Source: Candidatus Bathyarchaeota archaeon (lineage in GTDB: Archaea; Thermoproteota; Bathyarchaeia; Bathyarchaeales; Bathycorpusculaceae). Taken from it: a stretch of DNA of 64,000 nucleotides. Positions 52,583 to 58,810 of the stretch are shown here, in pieces. The stretch is taken from the NCBI GenBank assembly GCA_963767735.1, contig CAVYES010000004.1:128001-192000 (forward strand). Direction: 5' to 3'. Below the pieces are notes generated by a model that was given only the letters and a program-made list of their open reading frames with translations, did no database searches and had not been told where the DNA came from. Each line of letters starts with the position of its first letter. Within the stretch, counting starts at the first letter, position 1. The translations under genes and the position numbers were made by a program.

Positions 52583-52903
52583 TTGAACAATTACATTGTC
52601 ATATTTGTAACTGCGAAGGATAGGCAGGAGGCGGAAAAAATAACACAGGCGCTCTTGGATGAACGTTTGATTGCTTGTGGAAACATCGTTAATCCGGTTA
52701 CTTCATTTTTCCATTGGGTTGGCAAAATTGAAAAGGCTGAGGAATGCTTGATTGTTATGAAATCGCGGGCAGATTTGTTTTTGCAGGTTGCTGAGCGTGT
52801 GAAGCGTTTGCATAGTTATGAGGTTCCTGAGGTTTTGGCGTTGCCTATTGTTGACGCGTCGAAGGCTTATTTGGATTGGATGAGTGTTGTGCTCAAACCT
52901 TAA
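52583..52903 (+). CDS. cutA: Divalent-cation tolerance protein CutA
   Basis: LIACGNI..HSYEVPEVLALP..YLDWM. Confidence 0.95.
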   Translation: MNNYIVIFVTAKDRQEAEKITQALLDERLIACGNIVNPVTSFFHWVGKIEKAEECLIVMKSRADLFLQVAERVKRLHSYEVPEVLALPIVDASKAYLDWMSVVLKP

Positions 52904-52977
52904 TGTACATTTTTGTTCAAGTAAGCCTTAAATAATACATTGACGTATGCTTCTGAACTGTAAGGAAGCGCAACAAA

Positions 52978-53028
52978 ATGGGGAATCGCCTTTGGCACAC
53001 AAACAGCAACCGAAACCAAACCAGCTAA
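52978..53028 (+). promoter_or_regulatory. Candidate Trp-containing leader ORF (MGNRLWHTNSNRNQTS) overlapping the trpE frame
   Basis: ATG at 52978; CTT TGG at 52990..52995; the trpE frame is +1. Confidence 0.4.
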
Positions 53029-54394
53029 TCCCCTAAAAATCAAAAAAATCCAAATCACACAACAACCCCTCGAAATATTCTCAAAACTCCAAAAACAATA
53101 CAAAACAAACTACCTTCTCGAATCAATTGAAGGACCAAAAAAACTCGCACAATACTCATTTATCGGATTCAACCCAAAAATAACCGTCCAAACCAAAAAC
53201 GAAAAAGTCCAAATCAAAAACGAAAGAACCGGCGAAACAACCATACAGAAAACAAGCGATCCACTGCAAACCATAGAAAACCTCCTCAAAAACGATGCAA
53301 TCTCAAACAGTGAATTCAGATTTATTGGCGGAGCAGTGGGCTACATCTCTTATGATGCAGTACGTTACTGGGAAAAACTTCCAGAAAACAACCAGGCTGG
53401 CCTGATTTTTCCTGACTTGGAAATGGGCATATTTGACGACGGATTCATCTTCAACCATAAACTACCGCAAGCATTCTACTATTACCGAAGCGAGAATCGC
53501 CTGCCTGAAGTTGAAAGACTACTTAAACAGCCAATTGTTTCTGAAGAATTTTCTTACACTCAACCTAAAGTAAGCACTAAAAAAGAAAACTATGAAAAAG
53601 CGGTTGAAAAAGCAAAAGAATACGTGACCGCAGGAGACATTTTCCAAGTTGTCCTATCCAAACGCTACCAATTCCAAATAAAAGGCGACCTTATGCCGTT
53701 TTATCAGTCTCTTCGCACCATTAACCCTTCCCCTTACATGTACTTCTATAAGTCAGGCGAACGGCAAATCGTCGGTTCCAGCCCCGAAATGCTCGTCCGA
53801 GTTGAAAACAGAACCGTGGAAACCTTCCCGATTGCAGGAACAAGACCTGCTGATGAAGACCCCCGCAGAAACAGCAGGTTAGCTCGTGAATTGCTTGCTG
53901 ACCCAAAAGAGCGCGCCGAACACGTGATGCTTGTAGACTTAGCACGCAACGACATCGGCAAAATCTCAAAGTACGGCAGCGTTCACGTGCCAGAATTCAT
54001 GAGAGTCCACCGTTACAGCCACGTGCAACATATTGTTTCGCAGGTGGTAGGCGAACTTAAAGAAAACCTTCAAAGCTACGATGCGCTACGGGCTGTTTTT
54101 CCAGCCGGCACGGTTTCTGGAGCACCAAAAGTGCGAGCTATGGAAATCATTGACGAGCTTGAGCCAGCTAGGCGTGGACCTTACGCTGGCGCAGTAGGCT
54201 ACTTTTCATACAATGGCAATGCCGACTTCGCCATAACCATCCGCACACTCTTCGCCGATAAGAAACATGCGTATATTCAAGCTGGCGCAGGAATTGTGGC
54301 TGATTCAGTTCCAGAAACAGAGTGGTTTGAAACAGACCACAAGGCAAAAGCGCTGATGCAGGCGCTTGAGCAGGCTGGAGGCGCAAAATCATGA
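52991..54394 (+). CDS. trpE: Anthranilate synthase component I (5' end unresolved)
   Basis: YLLES..AQYSFIG lies upstream of the track start 53336 in the same frame; GDIFQVV, PIAGT, KERAEHVMLVDLARND, GAPKVRAM. Confidence 0.95.
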   Translation, partial: FGTQTATETKPANPLKIKKIQITQQPLEIFSKLQKQYKTNYLLESIEGPKKLAQYSFIGFNPKITVQTKNEKVQIKNERTGETTIQKTSDPLQTIENLLKNDAISNSEFRFIGGAVGYISYDAVRYWEKLPENNQAGLIFPDLEMGIFDDGFIFNHKLPQAFYYYRSENRLPEVERLLKQPIVSEEFSYTQPKVSTKKENYEKAVEKAKEYVTAGDIFQVVLSKRYQFQIKGDLMPFYQSLRTINPSPYMYFYKSGERQIVGSSPEMLVRVENRTVETFPIAGTRPADEDPRRNSRLARELLADPKERAEHVMLVDLARNDIGKISKYGSVHVPEFMRVHRYSHVQHIVSQVVGELKENLQSYDALRAVFPAGTVSGAPKVRAMEIIDELEPARRGPYAGAVGYFSYNGNADFAITIRTLFADKKHAYIQAGAGIVADSVPETEWFETDHKAKALMQALEQAGGAKS

Positions 54395-54981
54395 AGGTAG
54401 TGGTAATTGATAATTATGATTCGTTCGTTTACAACCTTGTTCAGTACATTGGCGAGCAGGGCGCGGAAGTCATTGTTTACAGAAACAACCAAGTTACCTT
54501 GGAACAGTTAATTAAGCTTAAACCTGACCGAATTGTGATTTCGCCAGGTCCAGGCACACCTGAAGATGAGCGTTACTTTGGCGTCTGCAAAAAAATCCTG
54601 CAAACCTTAAGCCCCACAATTCCAACTTTAGGCGTCTGCTTAGGCCACCAAGGCATAATCCACGTCTATGGCGGAAAAATCATCCATGCAAAAAAGCTAA
54701 TGCATGGAAAAACCTGCACAATAAAACATGACCAAAAAGGCATCTTCACAGGCGTACGCAACCCATTCACGGCAACACGGTATCATTCGCTTGCCGGCGA
54801 ACGGTGCTCTATTCCAGCATGCTTAGAAATTACCGCAGAATGCATCGAGGACGGTGAAATCATGGGCATTCGGCATGTTAAGTATCCGATTGACGGCGTC
54901 CAATTTCATCCTGAGTCAATTCTATGTGAAGACGGCAAAGTTATAATTAAAAACTTTTTGGAGGGAAAGCGCAGGCTATGA
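54391..54981 (+). CDS. trpG: Anthranilate synthase component II
   Basis: IDNYDSF, SPGPG, GVCLGHQ, QFHPES. Confidence 0.95.
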   Translation: MKVVVIDNYDSFVYNLVQYIGEQGAEVIVYRNNQVTLEQLIKLKPDRIVISPGPGTPEDERYFGVCKKILQTLSPTIPTLGVCLGHQGIIHVYGGKIIHAKKLMHGKTCTIKHDQKGIFTGVRNPFTATRYHSLAGERCSIPACLEITAECIEDGEIMGIRHVKYPIDGVQFHPESILCEDGKVIIKNFLEGKRRL

Positions 54982-56039
54982 TTAGGGAAGGCATTCAGAA
55001 ACTCATTGAAGGCTACAGCTTAACAGGCGACGAGTCAGGAGAAATCATGCGGGAAGTCATGTCTGGAAAAGCCACAAACTCGCAGACTGCCGCTTTTCTA
55101 ACAGCGTTGCGAATGAAAGGTGAAGCAGTTGAGGAACTAATCGCCTTCGCCTCTGTCATGCGCGAACAGAGCACCCAGATACATCCCCACGTGCATGGTC
55201 GCTTAGTGGATACTTGCGGGACAGGCGGAGACAAAATAAAAACCTTCAACGTTAGCACCGCAGCCGCTTTCGTCATTGCAGGAGCTGGCGTGGCAGTTGC
55301 TAAACATGGAAACAGGGCTGTAACCAGCAAATGCGGCAGCGCCGACGTTCTAGAAAAGCTCGGTCTAAACCTTTACTTGGAGCCAAAAGCAGTTGAAGGC
55401 ACAATAGAGAAACTGGGGATAGGCTTCTTGTTTGCTCCAGCTTTCAATCCAGCAATGAAGTATGCGGCTGAACCAAGAAGGGAAATAGGCATCCGCACAG
55501 TATTCAACCTCCTCGGACCACTGACCAATCCAGCATGCGCAAATGCTCAACTGCTCGGCGTATACGACTCTAAACTGACTGCCCCATTAGCTTATGCGCT
55601 AAAGCGGCTGGGCTGCGAAGAAGCCATGGTTGTCCACGGATTAGACGGCTTAGATGAAATATCAACGGTTGGCAAAACAGCTATTGCACATTTAAGAGGC
55701 GGTGAAGTCAGCGAACTTGAAGTTTCTCCTGGCGATTTTGGAGTTAAAACAGCGTGCATCACAGATTTAAAGGTGGAATCACCTGAAGAAAGCGCTGAAA
55801 CACTCTTCAAAAGTCTCAGCGGCAATCTTACTCACGGTGACCCAAAAATGGAGTTTGTGCTTGTTAACAGTGTAGCTGGAATAATGGTTGGGGGAAAAGC
55901 GGACGATTTTGAAGGCGGCATGGAGTTAGCCCGTGAATCAATCGAGAGCGGAGCAGCGTATAGTAAGCTTAAGGGTTTGGTTACAGCTTCAGGCGAAAGC
56001 CTGCAGAAACTCGAGGAGTTCGAAATGAAGTATGAGTGA
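54978..56039 (+). CDS. trpD: Anthranilate phosphoribosyltransferase
   Basis: DTCGTGGD, NVST, KHGNR, GLDE. Confidence 0.97.
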   Translation: MIREGIQKLIEGYSLTGDESGEIMREVMSGKATNSQTAAFLTALRMKGEAVEELIAFASVMREQSTQIHPHVHGRLVDTCGTGGDKIKTFNVSTAAAFVIAGAGVAVAKHGNRAVTSKCGSADVLEKLGLNLYLEPKAVEGTIEKLGIGFLFAPAFNPAMKYAAEPRREIGIRTVFNLLGPLTNPACANAQLLGVYDSKLTAPLAYALKRLGCEEAMVVHGLDGLDEISTVGKTAIAHLRGGEVSELEVSPGDFGVKTACITDLKVESPEESAETLFKSLSGNLTHGDPKMEFVLVNSVAGIMVGGKADDFEGGMELARESIESGAAYSKLKGLVTASGESLQKLEEFEMKYE

Positions 56040-56811
56040 TTATCTTGATGTTCTGGCGCGAGTTGCCCAGATAAATATTGATGATGAATACTATGATGCA
56101 GTAAAACGTGTTGAAAGCATTGTTATTAGCTTGCGAAAGGCGATTTTGGATTGTCAAGTTGTTCCGGTTATAGCCGAAATAAAGTCGGCTTCTCCATCGG
56201 CTGGTGTGATAAGAAAAAACGTGGAGCCAAACGAGATTGCGAAGGCAATTCAGAGGGGCGGAGCCGCAGCCTTATCTGTGTTAACTGAGCCCAAACAATT
56301 CAATGGCTCCTTAGAAGCTTTAGCTCAAGCCAGAGAAGCAATGAAACTTCCCATCCTCATGAAAGACATAATCGTAAGCCCCCTACAAGTCTACGCTGCA
56401 TCGAAAATAGGTGCAAACGCCGTTTTGTTGATTAAGGCGCTTTTTGACAGAGGGTACTGTGAAAAGACCCTTGATGAAATGATTGCTGGAGCGCACGGGT
56501 TGGGTCTTGAGGTTTTGCTTGAAACCCACACCGAAACAGAGTTTCAGTCAGCCGTAATGACGGGCGCTGATTTGATAGGGATAAACAACCGTAACCTTGG
56601 GACCCTAAAAGTAGATTTAAGCGTTACAAAAAACATCCTCTCAAAAAACGACACAAACGGCAAACTCGTCATAAGCGAAAGCGGAATAAACACACCAGCT
56701 GACATATGTTTTCTCCGAGAAAGTGGAGCATGCGCCTTCCTCATCGGCTCAGCTATAATGTCAACCGATAACGTTGAAGAAAAAGTCAGGGAGTTTGTGA
56801 ACGCAAAATGA
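56032..56811 (+). CDS. trpC: Indole-3-glycerol phosphate synthase
   Basis: [28 protein letters not shown]. Confidence 0.95.
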
Positions 56812-58004
56812 AAGCGAGCAACTACCCTGTCGACGGAAAATACGGGAAATATGGCGGGCGCTTTGTCCCAGAAGTGCTGATGGCAGCCATCAAAGAGCTG
56901 GAAGAAGCGTATGAGCAAGCGCGTAAAGACCCCAGTTTCCAGAAAGAACTTGATTACTATCTGTCAGAGTTCGTTGGAAGACCCACATCGCTCTACTTTG
57001 CTGAGAACTTGACGCGTAAGCTGGGCGGCGCCAAGATTTACCTTAAACGCGAAGACTTAGCTCATGGCGGAGCACACAAAATAAACAACACCATCGGGCA
57101 AGCGTTACTCGCCAAACGAATGGGCAAGACCCGTGTTATAGCCGAGACGGGAGCAGGTCAACACGGTGTAGCCACTGCAATTGCATGCGCCGCCTTAGGC
57201 TTGAAAGCTGAGGTTTACATGGGTACAGAAGACTGTGAACGTCAGCGGCTTAATGTTTTCCGCATGAAGCTTCTAAATGCACAAGTGCATCCCGTCGAAT
57301 CTGGTTCAAAAACCCTCAAGGACTCGATAAACGAGGCGTTCCGCGATTGGGTTACAAACCTTCAGACGACATATTACTTAATCGGCTCAGTTGTTGGTCC
57401 CCATCCGTATCCAATGATTGTTAGGGATTTCCAAAGCGTAATCGGCAAAGAACTCAAAGAACAATTCCACAAAAAAGAAGGTCGACTCCCCGATGCTCTG
57501 GTTGCTTGCGTAGGCGGCGGAAGCAACGCTATAGGCACATTCTACCCCTTCGAAGACAACGCGGAAGTGAAGTTTTATGGTGTTGAAGCTGCAGGAGAAG
57601 GTTTAGAAACGGGCAAACACGCCGCATCTCTTGGCGCAGGAGCAGAAGGAGTCTTCCACGGCATGTTAACCTACGTTCTCCAAGACAGCAAAGGGCAGAT
57701 ACAGAACACAAGCAGCATTTCCGCAGGCTTAGACTATCCAGGCGTTGGACCAGAACACTCCTTCCTAAAAACCCTCAAAAGAGCGAAATATGTTTCAGCC
57801 ACAGACAAAGAAGCGGTGGACGCTTTTCTAGCTTTGTCCCGAGAGGAGGGAATCCTGCCTGCCTTGGAATCGTCGCATGCAGTGGCTTACGCCATGAAAC
57901 TTGCGCCAAAAATGAAGAAGAACCAGTCAATCATCGTAACCTTGTCGGGACGGGGCGATAAAGACGTGGAAACCATAGCAGACTACATCGGAGCAAAAAT
58001 ATGA
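56808..58004 (+). CDS. trpB: Tryptophan synthase beta chain
   Basis: [29 protein letters not shown]. Confidence 0.98.
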
Positions 58005-58810
58005 ATGCAATAAACCAAGCGTTCCAAAAGGCAAAGGCGCAGGGAAACGGAGCCCTCATCGGCTACATTATGGCTGGAGACCCAAAACCCAAAGTGACAG
58101 CGAAAATTGCTGACGCCTTAATCAAAGGAGGAGTGGACATTTTGGAGCTTGGGCTTCCTTTTTCTGATCCGATTGCGGATGGACCAACAATTCAAGCTGC
58201 AAGCGTACGTGCATTAGCTGCTGGAACAACGCCAACTCGGGTGCTGGAAATTGCCAAAGAAATACGGTTAAGCCATGACGTACCAATTGTAGTAATGACT
58301 TATTATAATCCCGTGTTCAGGATGGGGCTTGAGAAGTTTTTCGGTTTAGCTCAGGAATGCCTTGTTGACGGCGTCATAGTTCCAGATTTACCCGTTGAAG
58401 AAGCAGGCGACTACAAGAAAGCCGCAGGCAAATCTGGCATAGACACGATTTTTCTTGTTGCACCGTCCACTTCTAATGAACGCTTAGGGCGAATTGTTGA
58501 GTGTTCGTCGGGTTTTCTATATCTTGTTTCCCACTTCGGCGTGACAGGTGCACAGTCAAAAATTGAAGATTCAACTATTGAGCTTGTCAAGCGTATTTTG
58601 CCCAATACGTCTGGGAAGATTCCTTTGGCCGTTGGGTTCGGCGTCTCGAAGCCTGAGCATGTTCGGCGCATTATGGCGGCGGGGGCAGACGGCGTCATCG
58701 TTGGCAGCGCCTTCATCAATGTAATTCAAAAAAACCAAGGCAACATAGATGCCCTGCTAAAAGAGCTGCAGGCAACCGCTTCTGGGCTTAAGGCAGCAAC
58801 AAAAATCTAA
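58001..58810 (+). CDS. trpA: Tryptophan synthase alpha chain
   Basis: [28 protein letters not shown]. Confidence 0.98.

Follow-up and report, generated by a model that had tools for sequence, protein, structure and literature searches.

The gene trpE, which encodes component I of anthranilate synthase, stands at the head of the tryptophan operon in the stretch of archaeal DNA analysed here (the window; 64,000 nucleotides, G000:C4:128001-192000, from a Candidatus Bathyarchaeota genome of 3.04 Mb in 10 contigs). Comparison of trpE 5' regions within and beyond the class indicates that TrpE is very probably made by a programmed +1 ribosomal frameshift at NUU-UGG, which lies at the fifth and sixth codons of a short open reading frame (ORF). 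The explanation favoured overall, with a rough probability of 0.6, is that this programmed frameshift would provide a feedback set by the supply of charged tRNA-Trp. In the labels used below, L denotes a locus (a trpE 5' region unless stated otherwise), G a genome, f a numbered family, and X a contig from a sequencing read run.

Two reading frames at the 5' end of trpE

The trpE frame is open from 52964, directly after a TAA at 52961-63, to its stop at 54392-94, and the first ATG, GTG or TTG within it is the GTG at 53336, 124 codons in. The match to Anth_synt_I_N covers residues 34-166 of this frame, and the conserved N-terminal domain begins at approx. 53063, 273 nt 5' of that GTG; a start at the GTG would therefore delete the conserved domain. 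In a scan of ORFs of at least 250 codons, which returned 14 candidates with at least 70 start-less codons, trpE had the longest start-less leader in the genome, four frames formed by poly-A/T runs aside. An ATG at 52978 opens a second ORF that reads ATG GGG AAT CGC CTT TGG CAC and continues to a TAA after 16 sense codons; its one TGG is located at 52993-95. This ORF lies one base behind the trpE frame, which is obtained when TTT GGC is read from 52991. The two frames overlap in a +1 relation, and the trpE frame has no start of its own for the conserved part of the protein. When CTTT is read as one Leu step, an uninterrupted protein of 471 amino acids (P0002) results, in which L5 is the sole changed step. 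The original prediction, made from the letters of the window, had described a trpE frame lacking ATG, GTG and TTG before 53336 despite a conserved N-terminus, and both the sequence and the Pfam matches bear this out; its account of the 16-codon ORF, with a single TGG in a CTT-TGG-C that leads into the trpE frame, is correct in every detail.

The frame break is not a sequencing error. As a competing account, the same prediction had proposed that one C is missing from the run at 53030-53033 and that translation starts at the TTG at 52992. This TTG belongs to the third frame, which closes at TAA 53034-36, and in relatives that frame closes early, at differing places. Among the contigs compared, X1 (DNA, possibly from the source sample) is identical to the window over 52951-53302, and in X3 (DNA, from a different study) the only indels are at 52966 and 52969, 5' of the ATG. 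The contig X16, from an RNA library and belonging to a relative, covers 52974-53260 with 18 substitutions and 0 gaps. Thus, no indel is found at 52978-53238 in contigs of two DNA runs (of different studies) and one RNA library, from which rare variants or minor RNA species cannot be excluded, and no fifth C appears over 53025-53040, where mapping had been suggested as a check. The break recurs in 140 distinct sequences of separate assemblies and in 22 from outside the class, and the remainder of trpE is intact and conserved, with full-length Pfam matches. Other breaks in the genome, near A-runs at C5:568266 and C7:124217, may be errors, and the site itself has one G fewer in the relative L042; nevertheless, an error or a decaying pseudogene is scarcely credible here, and a missing C combined with a start at TTG 52992 is ruled out by the break that relatives share, the indel-free contigs and the closures of the TTG frame.

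Conservation of the leader and its probable shift site

The comparison drew on 170 trpE 5' regions: 30 loci of relatives, 80 contig loci and 60 class-level stretches. The genomes of the closest relatives are mostly metagenome-assembled, from soil, peat and similar sources. Anchoring on the conserved domain succeeded for 168 of the 170 loci; L053 was dropped for its short upstream part, and the removal of identical sequences left 152 distinct regions. A start codon in the leader frame (the 0 frame), an NTT-TGG and a TTT in the trpE frame are found together in 140 of these 152. The gap between start codon and NTT is exactly four codons in 139 of the 140 and six in L168, and the start itself is ATG in 134, GTG in 4 and TTG in 2. 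An alignment of related trpE 5' regions had been put forward as a check, and it shows the start, the spacing, the NTT-TGG and the frame break to be kept in these 140 regions. Moreover, matches of an unrestricted regular expression near trpE lie without exception in the frame that requires a +1 shift (93/93, and 50/50 in 49 loci of a later set), and the spacers from TTT to the domain have 12 lengths, every one a multiple of 3. In 75 of the 140 motif-bearing sequences, the trpE frame contains no canonical start up to the domain. Information content over the 140 sequences is 2.0 bits at TTTGG and at three other positions, compared with approx. 0.1-0.6 bits downstream, and the site is under purifying selection stronger than that on the flanking coding sequence. 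The arrangement is far beyond chance.

A strict 18-nt pattern, ATGRGGNATNNNNTTTGG, occurs once in the genome of the window, compared with 0 occurrences of a reversed control. In a class draw of 301 genomes, 122 of which have a trpE match at E <=1e-30, there are 114 near-full-length trpE matches, and 85 of them carry the pattern at their 5' end. Its 139 places in the 301 genomes consist of these 85 and 54 elsewhere, and the reversed control gave approx. 30 (hand tally). No shift-requiring gene was found in the 12 inspected of the 54 non-trpE matches. Four matches (L213-L216, at G197:C20:96556, G208:C37:211121, G223:C1:3736 and G297:C47:8767) fall in a LAGLIDADG-like ORF of approx. 170 amino acids with a GLFDTDG motif; they resemble the trpE leader pattern by coincidence, as the second ATG inside the pattern is the start and a shift is unneeded. 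The L216 copy has a frame break further downstream. Among the 60 class-level stretches, the motif is present in 50; the stretches without it are six of family f24, one of f34, two of f31, and L171, and all 10 have ordinary in-frame starts.

A phylum draw comprised 251 genomes, 136 of them with a trpE match at E <=1e-60. The motif was found in 22 of 40 regions from genomes outside the class that had been hand-picked (a match reaching query residue <=8, plus examples from other families), so that 22/40 is not a frequency. It is carried by families f40 (8/8), f63 (8/8), f46 (2/2), f47 (1/1), f58 (1/1), f52 (1/2) and f53 (1/1, as the variant ATG TGC CTT TGG), and it is missing from f44 (0/2), f55 (0/6), f49 (0/3), f57 (0/2), and f64, f72, f54 and f50 (0/1 each). 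Overall, the motif occurs in at least 19 numbered families of the phylum. Family f40 represents ammonia oxidisers, since archaeal amoA is present in 4/4 of its genomes tested; its loci (L184, L187, L192 and L208-L212) keep ATG GGT GGN NNN NTT TGG at trpE. This distribution raises the prospect of an ancient switch present in much of the phylum Thermoproteota, among most of the Bathyarchaeia sampled and among ammonia oxidisers too, in which a hungry-codon shift at NUU-UGG would measure charged tRNA-Trp and turn the trp operon on or off, a view that may prove right or wrong with about equal chances.

TTTGG is invariant in all 140 sequences. All four bases occur at the first position of the P-site codon (CTT 84, GTT 28, ATT 23, TTT 5), and the +1 codon always specifies Gly (GGC 93, GGA 21, GGG 17, GGT 9). 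The 0-frame A-site codon is UGG in 140/140 class-level and 22/22 phylum-level motif sequences, and in none of these 162 is it replaced by a stop or any other codon. The leader peptide after the Trp is unconserved, and its stop lies 1-45 codons past the TGG. Across the alignment, the sequence varies in the way expected of a slippery site.

Stop codons of individual species delimit the site further. In the +1 frame, a stop directly precedes TTT in L168 and L169 of the class and in L176 and L178-L183 outside it (in the contexts CTA-ATT-TGG, CTA-GTT-TGG and TTA-GTT-TGG), so NTT must be read before the ribosome leaves the 0 frame. In the 0 frame, a stop follows directly after TGG in L184 and L208 (CTT-TGG-TAA) and one codon later in 3 of the 140. 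Because such species-specific stops bound both sides, the frame change must fall at NTT-TGG, and it is to this point that the predicted shift is confined. Upstream, the +1 frame is interrupted by a TGA overlapping the ATG in 34 of the 140 and by TAA or TAG before TTT in nine; upstream translation in the +1 frame is thus excluded in many species.

Four natural variants (L011, L042, L171 and L177) have trpE in one frame, start at the homologous ATG and mimic the predicted product. L011 reads ATG AGG AAC CAC CTT GAC and yields MRNHLDNQ..., and L042 reads CTT TGC AGC, with one G fewer (MGNRLCSTQ...), which could also be an error. L177 reads MRTSNPSTSDKP..., beside L175 with its predicted shifted product MRDCF-GLLASDKP.... 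L171 is one of two trpE copies in G275, which are located at C40:2149-3531 and C34:61232-62566 (the latter being L171).

These data bear on two other ways of reaching the trpE frame. Translation might begin within that frame at a non-canonical codon (the ATH Ile codon at 52985-87 or a near-cognate), the ATG ORF then being a regulatory upstream ORF and no frameshift taking place. The +1 frame does read a well-kept G-I-(A/V)-F-G with variation concentrated at its third positions, none of the 140 sequences has a G at position -5, and a cbiH-like gene at C2:235767 may use ATA. However, a stop separates ATH from TTT in L168, L169 and L176 and the motif layout persists; ATH is absent from L178-L183, which nevertheless retain the start codon, NTT-TGG and the frame relation; and in 34 of the 140 the +1 frame is open for no more than the 3 codons preceding TTT. 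Such a start would also leave unexplained the exchange of ATG, GTG and TTG, the invariant TGG, and a TTT that is never TTC. In addition, the true Shine-Dalgarno sequence is approx. 16 nt from the ATH codon, and the one-frame variants use ATG. Taken together, this makes a non-canonical start quite improbable. The second possibility is that tRNA-Trp in the A site decodes four bases, UGGN, giving ...Leu-Trp-Thr... with no slip in the P site. The same frame would be reached, and the base after UGG is indeed free (C 93, A 21, G 17, T 9), but four-base decoding does not account for the UU that is always kept in the codon before it (140/140) or for the Shine-Dalgarno-like element. Abundant Trp-tRNA would promote such decoding, the opposite of what feedback requires, and three of the four one-frame variants have no Trp at the junction; it is very unlikely. 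The P-site slip from CUU to UUU at CTT-TGG-C, as originally predicted, is instead the account that the comparison supports (140/152 in the class, 22/40 in the phylum).

Proposed mechanism and response to tryptophan

According to the proposed mechanism, ribosomes would initiate at the ATG at 52978 and read Met-Gly-Asn-Arg-Leu in four elongation steps. Once peptidyl-tRNA-Leu occupied the P-site CUU and UGG stood in the A site, the tRNA would re-pair one base downstream, on UUU; Gly-tRNA would then read GGC and the ribosome would continue through trpE, with the first five codons of the leader providing the N-terminus of TrpE. On arrival of Trp-tRNA-Trp, UGG would be decoded instead, and translation would stop at TAA 53026-28 with only a 16-residue peptide made. 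The shift would compete with Trp-tRNA-Trp, occurring more often when charged tRNA-Trp is scarce and less often when it is plentiful, and trpE, together with the overlapping and presumably translationally coupled trpGDCBA, would thereby come under negative feedback. Genes for tRNA-Leu(GAG), tRNA-Trp(CCA) and tRNA-Gly(GCC) are present in the genome, and wobble rules suggest that tRNA-Leu(GAG) could form two G-U wobbles and one A-U pair on UUU. Two intron-bearing tRNA-Trp(CCA) genes were predicted by aragorn, the second with an odd anticodon position.

Two regions of the leader may pair with 16S rRNA. A purine-rich peak at -28..-23 in the position table of the 140 sequences corresponds to the Shine-Dalgarno region 5' of the ATG. 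An internal Shine-Dalgarno-like element overlaps the start codon and ends 2 nt before the slippery codon (Table 1). Pairing was predicted for 10-nt mRNA windows of the 140 sequences against the tail GGAUCACCUCCU of the genome's own 16S rRNA, the 3' end of which is GGATCACCTCCT. A first minimum falls over the Shine-Dalgarno region 5' of the ATG (mean -5.8 kcal/mol), and a deeper one at -13 to -3, comprising the G of ATG, RGG and often NAUC (mean -7.5 kcal/mol). In particular, G-12 to G-9 are predicted to be paired in 122 to 140 of the 140 sequences. Leader codon 2 is GGG in 102 and AGG in 33, so it is the nucleotides rather than the residue that are conserved; codon 3 is NAT with an invariant T. 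Between the GRGG core and the P-site codon lie 6 nt, or 2 nt should the pairing extend to AUC. In the proposed mechanism, GRGG(NAUC) would pair with the 16S 3' tail and would probably aid the slip; taken by itself, a contribution of this element to the frameshift is an evenly balanced proposition.

Over 52700-53500, no Rfam family matched at E up to 1, and no significant fold was found at 52950-53110 (-14.7 kcal/mol, z -0.65, 48 of 200 shuffles equal or better). Likewise, no terminator/antiterminator hairpin pair was found downstream of the leader by folding or in Rfam; the next 300 nt are G-poor. These results also count against correction of the frame in the RNA, by transcriptional slippage or editing rather than on the ribosome. 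Moreover, the site contains only three consecutive T, and the X16 contig, which comes from RNA, spans it without a gap. Correction in the RNA is exceedingly improbable.

If the frameshift is real, it is fairly probable that it responds to tryptophan, because the Trp codon is invariant and the gene heads the tryptophan operon. Of the readings of this invariant codon, tryptophan sensing is the most economical, and the constancy of UGG suggests that it was selected for the tRNA that decodes it. In the manner of an attenuator, the leader ORF is short and includes a codon for the regulated amino acid (16 codons, one of them for Trp). The shift could also be real but constitutive, serving to fix a low TrpE:leader ratio or merely persisting, without any response to tryptophan. 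The leader has one Trp codon only, some lineages manage without the element, and NTT-TGG is not avoided genome-wide; this last point suggests that the rate may be set by the Shine-Dalgarno-like element and the early position, not by how much tRNA-Trp is supplied. However, if any slow codon sufficed, stops or rare codons would be expected in place of a UGG that is found in 140/140 and 22/22 sequences. Furthermore, the element is located at the first gene of the trp operon and nowhere else in its own genome, and none of the 12 inspected matches away from trpE needs a shift. A constitutive shift is unlikely, though it keeps an appreciable share of the probability.

Several observations weigh against a tryptophan-responsive frameshift. 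The whole evidence base is sequence comparison, in which genomes that share a lineage do not count as independent. No avoidance of NTT-TGG, which would have been a sign of shiftiness, was found in coding sequences: the hexamer occurs 710 times in 1190 long ORFs, compared with 578 expected, so the heptamer alone is not strongly shift-prone and needs its context. In codons 2-4, third positions are near-invariant (G-9 135/140, T-6 140/140) and first positions vary, as would be expected if the +1 frame (G-I-A/V-F-G) were coded or if the RNA itself were constrained; pairing with 16S rRNA explains this in part, leaving T-6 and A-7 not fully accounted for. The distance of 6 nt between the GRGG core and the P-site codon differs from the 3 nt of bacterial prfB. 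A canonical start is present in the open +1 frame 5' of TTT in 42 of the 140 sequences (in 11 directly before TTT) and between TTT and the domain in 32, and an alternative start is conceivable in up to 65; the scatter of these starts argues against their use, without excluding it. In f40, the sequence ATGGGTGG has an in-frame GTG 4 nt after the ATG in all 8 loci, and the shift is thus not obligatory there. Finally, a lone Trp codon makes a more modest sensor than the Trp codons arranged in tandem in bacterial leaders, and trpE lacks the motif in 12/152 class-level and 18/40 phylum-level regions.

The operon and known recoding systems

Upstream of the trp operon (52978-58810) lies a cutA-like gene at 52583-52903 (Pfam CutA1). 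The gene order is trpE-trpG-trpD-trpC-trpB-trpA, and each of trpG, trpD, trpC, trpB and trpA overlaps the preceding gene by 4 or 8 nt (Table 1). No trpF is located between trpC and trpB; a search for trpF elsewhere in the genome was not made. A block at the TATA-like box, AAGCCTTAAATA, is kept in relatives, as three-frame sequence prints show.

Table 1. Positions of the trpE leader elements and the trp genes within the window
Feature	Position	Strand	Remarks
TATA-like box TTAAATAATA, likely archaeal trp operon promoter	52929..52938	+	approx. 50 nt 5' of ATG
Shine-Dalgarno-like GGAAG	52964..52968	+	9 nt 5' of ATG
G-poor, A+C-rich stretch (leader and first approx. 100 trpE codons)	52969..53296 (G000:C4:180969-181296)	+	GC skew to -0.78
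0-frame leader ORF MGNRLWHTNSNRNQTS, including stop TAA 53026-28	52978..53028	+	
Internal Shine-Dalgarno-like element GGGGAATC, consensus GRGG-N-AUC, candidate stimulator	52980..52987	+	predicted 16S pairing
Shift heptamer CTT-TGG-C	52990..52996	+	predicted P-site CUU -> UUU; A-site UGG (Trp); +1 codon GGC (Gly)
trpE, anthranilate synthase component I, +1 frame	52994..54394	+	Pfam Chorismate_bind 7.8e-100, Anth_synt_I_N 5.6e-35
trpG	54391-54981	+	Pfam GATase
trpD	54978-56039	+	Pfam Glycos_transf_3
trpC	56032-56811	+	Pfam IGPS
trpB	56808-58004	+	Pfam PALP
trpA	58001-58810	+	Pfam Trp_syntA

The stretch that covers the leader and the beginning of trpE is poor in G. Its G content is 11% in 92 order-level relatives, compared with 22% later in the same genes, and 20% in 48 class-level sequences; in the same 92 relatives, start-like triplets number 1.3 per 100 nt, compared with 4.4 later. 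Only 8 G-poor stretches of 250 nt occur in the genome. The G-poor stretch was rejected as an obligatory part of the element, as it is lineage-specific; that it removes internal starts, or exposes the RNA to a termination factor, are guesses.

The scan for start-less genes yielded three further candidates, each with a different and possibly trivial cause. A cbiH-like gene with an ISVVGIGPG motif (G000:C2:235767-236591, + strand) has 78 start-less codons; the stop of a cbiG-like ORF overlaps an ATA (ATAA) after GAGGG, which may be a coupled ATA start. A GHMP-kinase-like gene (G000:C5:568116-569060, + strand) lies in two frames and is split at a run of seven A, and at G000:C7:122547-124367 (- strand) the end of a NuoE-like ORF meets a start-less NuoF-like ORF near A-runs; both breaks could be homopolymer errors or slippage sites. 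In addition, runs of A and T hundreds long at G000:C7:184827-186778 look like an assembly artefact.

The regulation of amino-acid biosynthesis in archaea is little understood; a few protein repressors, e.g., TrpY, have been described, and attenuation of the bacterial style is not known from this domain. If the proposed mechanism is correct, the trpE leader would represent the first natural case of an amino-acid sensor that works by frameshifting and the first conserved +1 recoding in cellular archaeal genes. It would also give archaea an equivalent of bacterial attenuation with no need for RNA hairpins or a repressor, and would be a new, very compact regulatory principle of 19 nucleotides. The annotation of trpE would be corrected in at least 162 distinct sequences examined. 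Gene callers are expected to truncate such genes or to choose an arbitrary start, and ab initio frameshift finders can miss recoding that takes place only five codons into a gene. In f40, the in-frame GTG may have been taken as the start by gene callers. Ammonia-oxidising archaea include cultured members, and the presence of the motif in amoA-bearing ammonia oxidisers would make the idea directly testable.

According to passages of a 2021 review of archaeal recoding (PMC8211752), no programmed frameshift in a cellular archaeal gene has been demonstrated apart from the -1 shift in fucA1 of Saccharolobus solfataricus; the review also lists cases in viruses and a presumed one in magnesium chelatase, and neither tryptophan nor anthranilate appears as a word in the paper. 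Passages of the 2016 Atkins review (PMC5009743) do not mention trpE. A 2013 GeneTack survey (PMC3711429) included one thaumarchaeal genome, and its main text contains neither trp nor tryptophan, though its cluster supplements could bear on the matter. Full-text literature searches, with subscription journals outside their coverage, found no archaeal frameshift in trpE or linked to tryptophan; these searches thus agree with the original remark, which knew of no such case. Like the proposed trpE site, fucA1 is a cellular archaeal gene in two frames expressed by recoding; its shift, however, is -1 on A-AAA-AAT, is found in one species group, does not lie at the start of the gene and has no known regulatory logic.

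The closest parallel in design is provided by bacterial prfB, in which a +1 shift takes place at CUU-UGA-C, at approx. codon 26, with a Shine-Dalgarno-like stimulator 3 nt upstream. As proposed, the trpE site would share with it a P-site tRNA-Leu moving from CUU to UUU, a slow A-site codon and negative feedback; a Shine-Dalgarno-like element lies upstream in both, and the heptamers are one base apart (UGA vs UGG). They differ in that the waiting codon of prfB is a stop read by the gene's own product, whereas that of trpE is a sense codon read by tRNA-Trp. Moreover, the trpE site is located at codons 5-6, occurs in archaea and also has GUU, AUU or UUU in the P site. In yeast Ty1, a +1 shift at CUU-AGG-C, with a rare Arg codon, fixes the Gag:Pol ratio. 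Ty1 would resemble the proposed trpE site in the slip on CUU, a slow sense codon in the A site, GGC as the first +1 codon, and a hungry-codon mechanism without a stop; in contrast, it is a retrotransposon and does not sense an amino acid made by the enzyme it encodes.

Antizyme is similar in its logic, as a metabolite (polyamine) sets the rate of a +1 shift and the product feeds back on the pathway of that metabolite. Its shift occurs at an A-site stop codon with a downstream pseudoknot and is promoted by a high level of the metabolite; it is eukaryotic, and for trpE it is a low level that is proposed to promote the shift. In bacterial trpL, the speed of the ribosome over the Trp codons of a leader ORF reports charged tRNA-Trp and decides between alternative terminator and antiterminator hairpins. 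Both trpL and the trpE leader are short ORFs with Trp codons that head an operon. The trpL product, however, is a separate peptide acting together with hairpins, whereas the trpE leader would be fused to the enzyme by the shift, and no significant structure is predicted for it. The proposed tryptophan-sensing logic matches that of RF2, which senses UGA, and, in spirit, that of bacterial trp leader peptides. The use of a programmed +1 frameshift as an autoregulatory sensor is thus known; the signal (a charged sense-codon tRNA), the position and the domain of life would be new.

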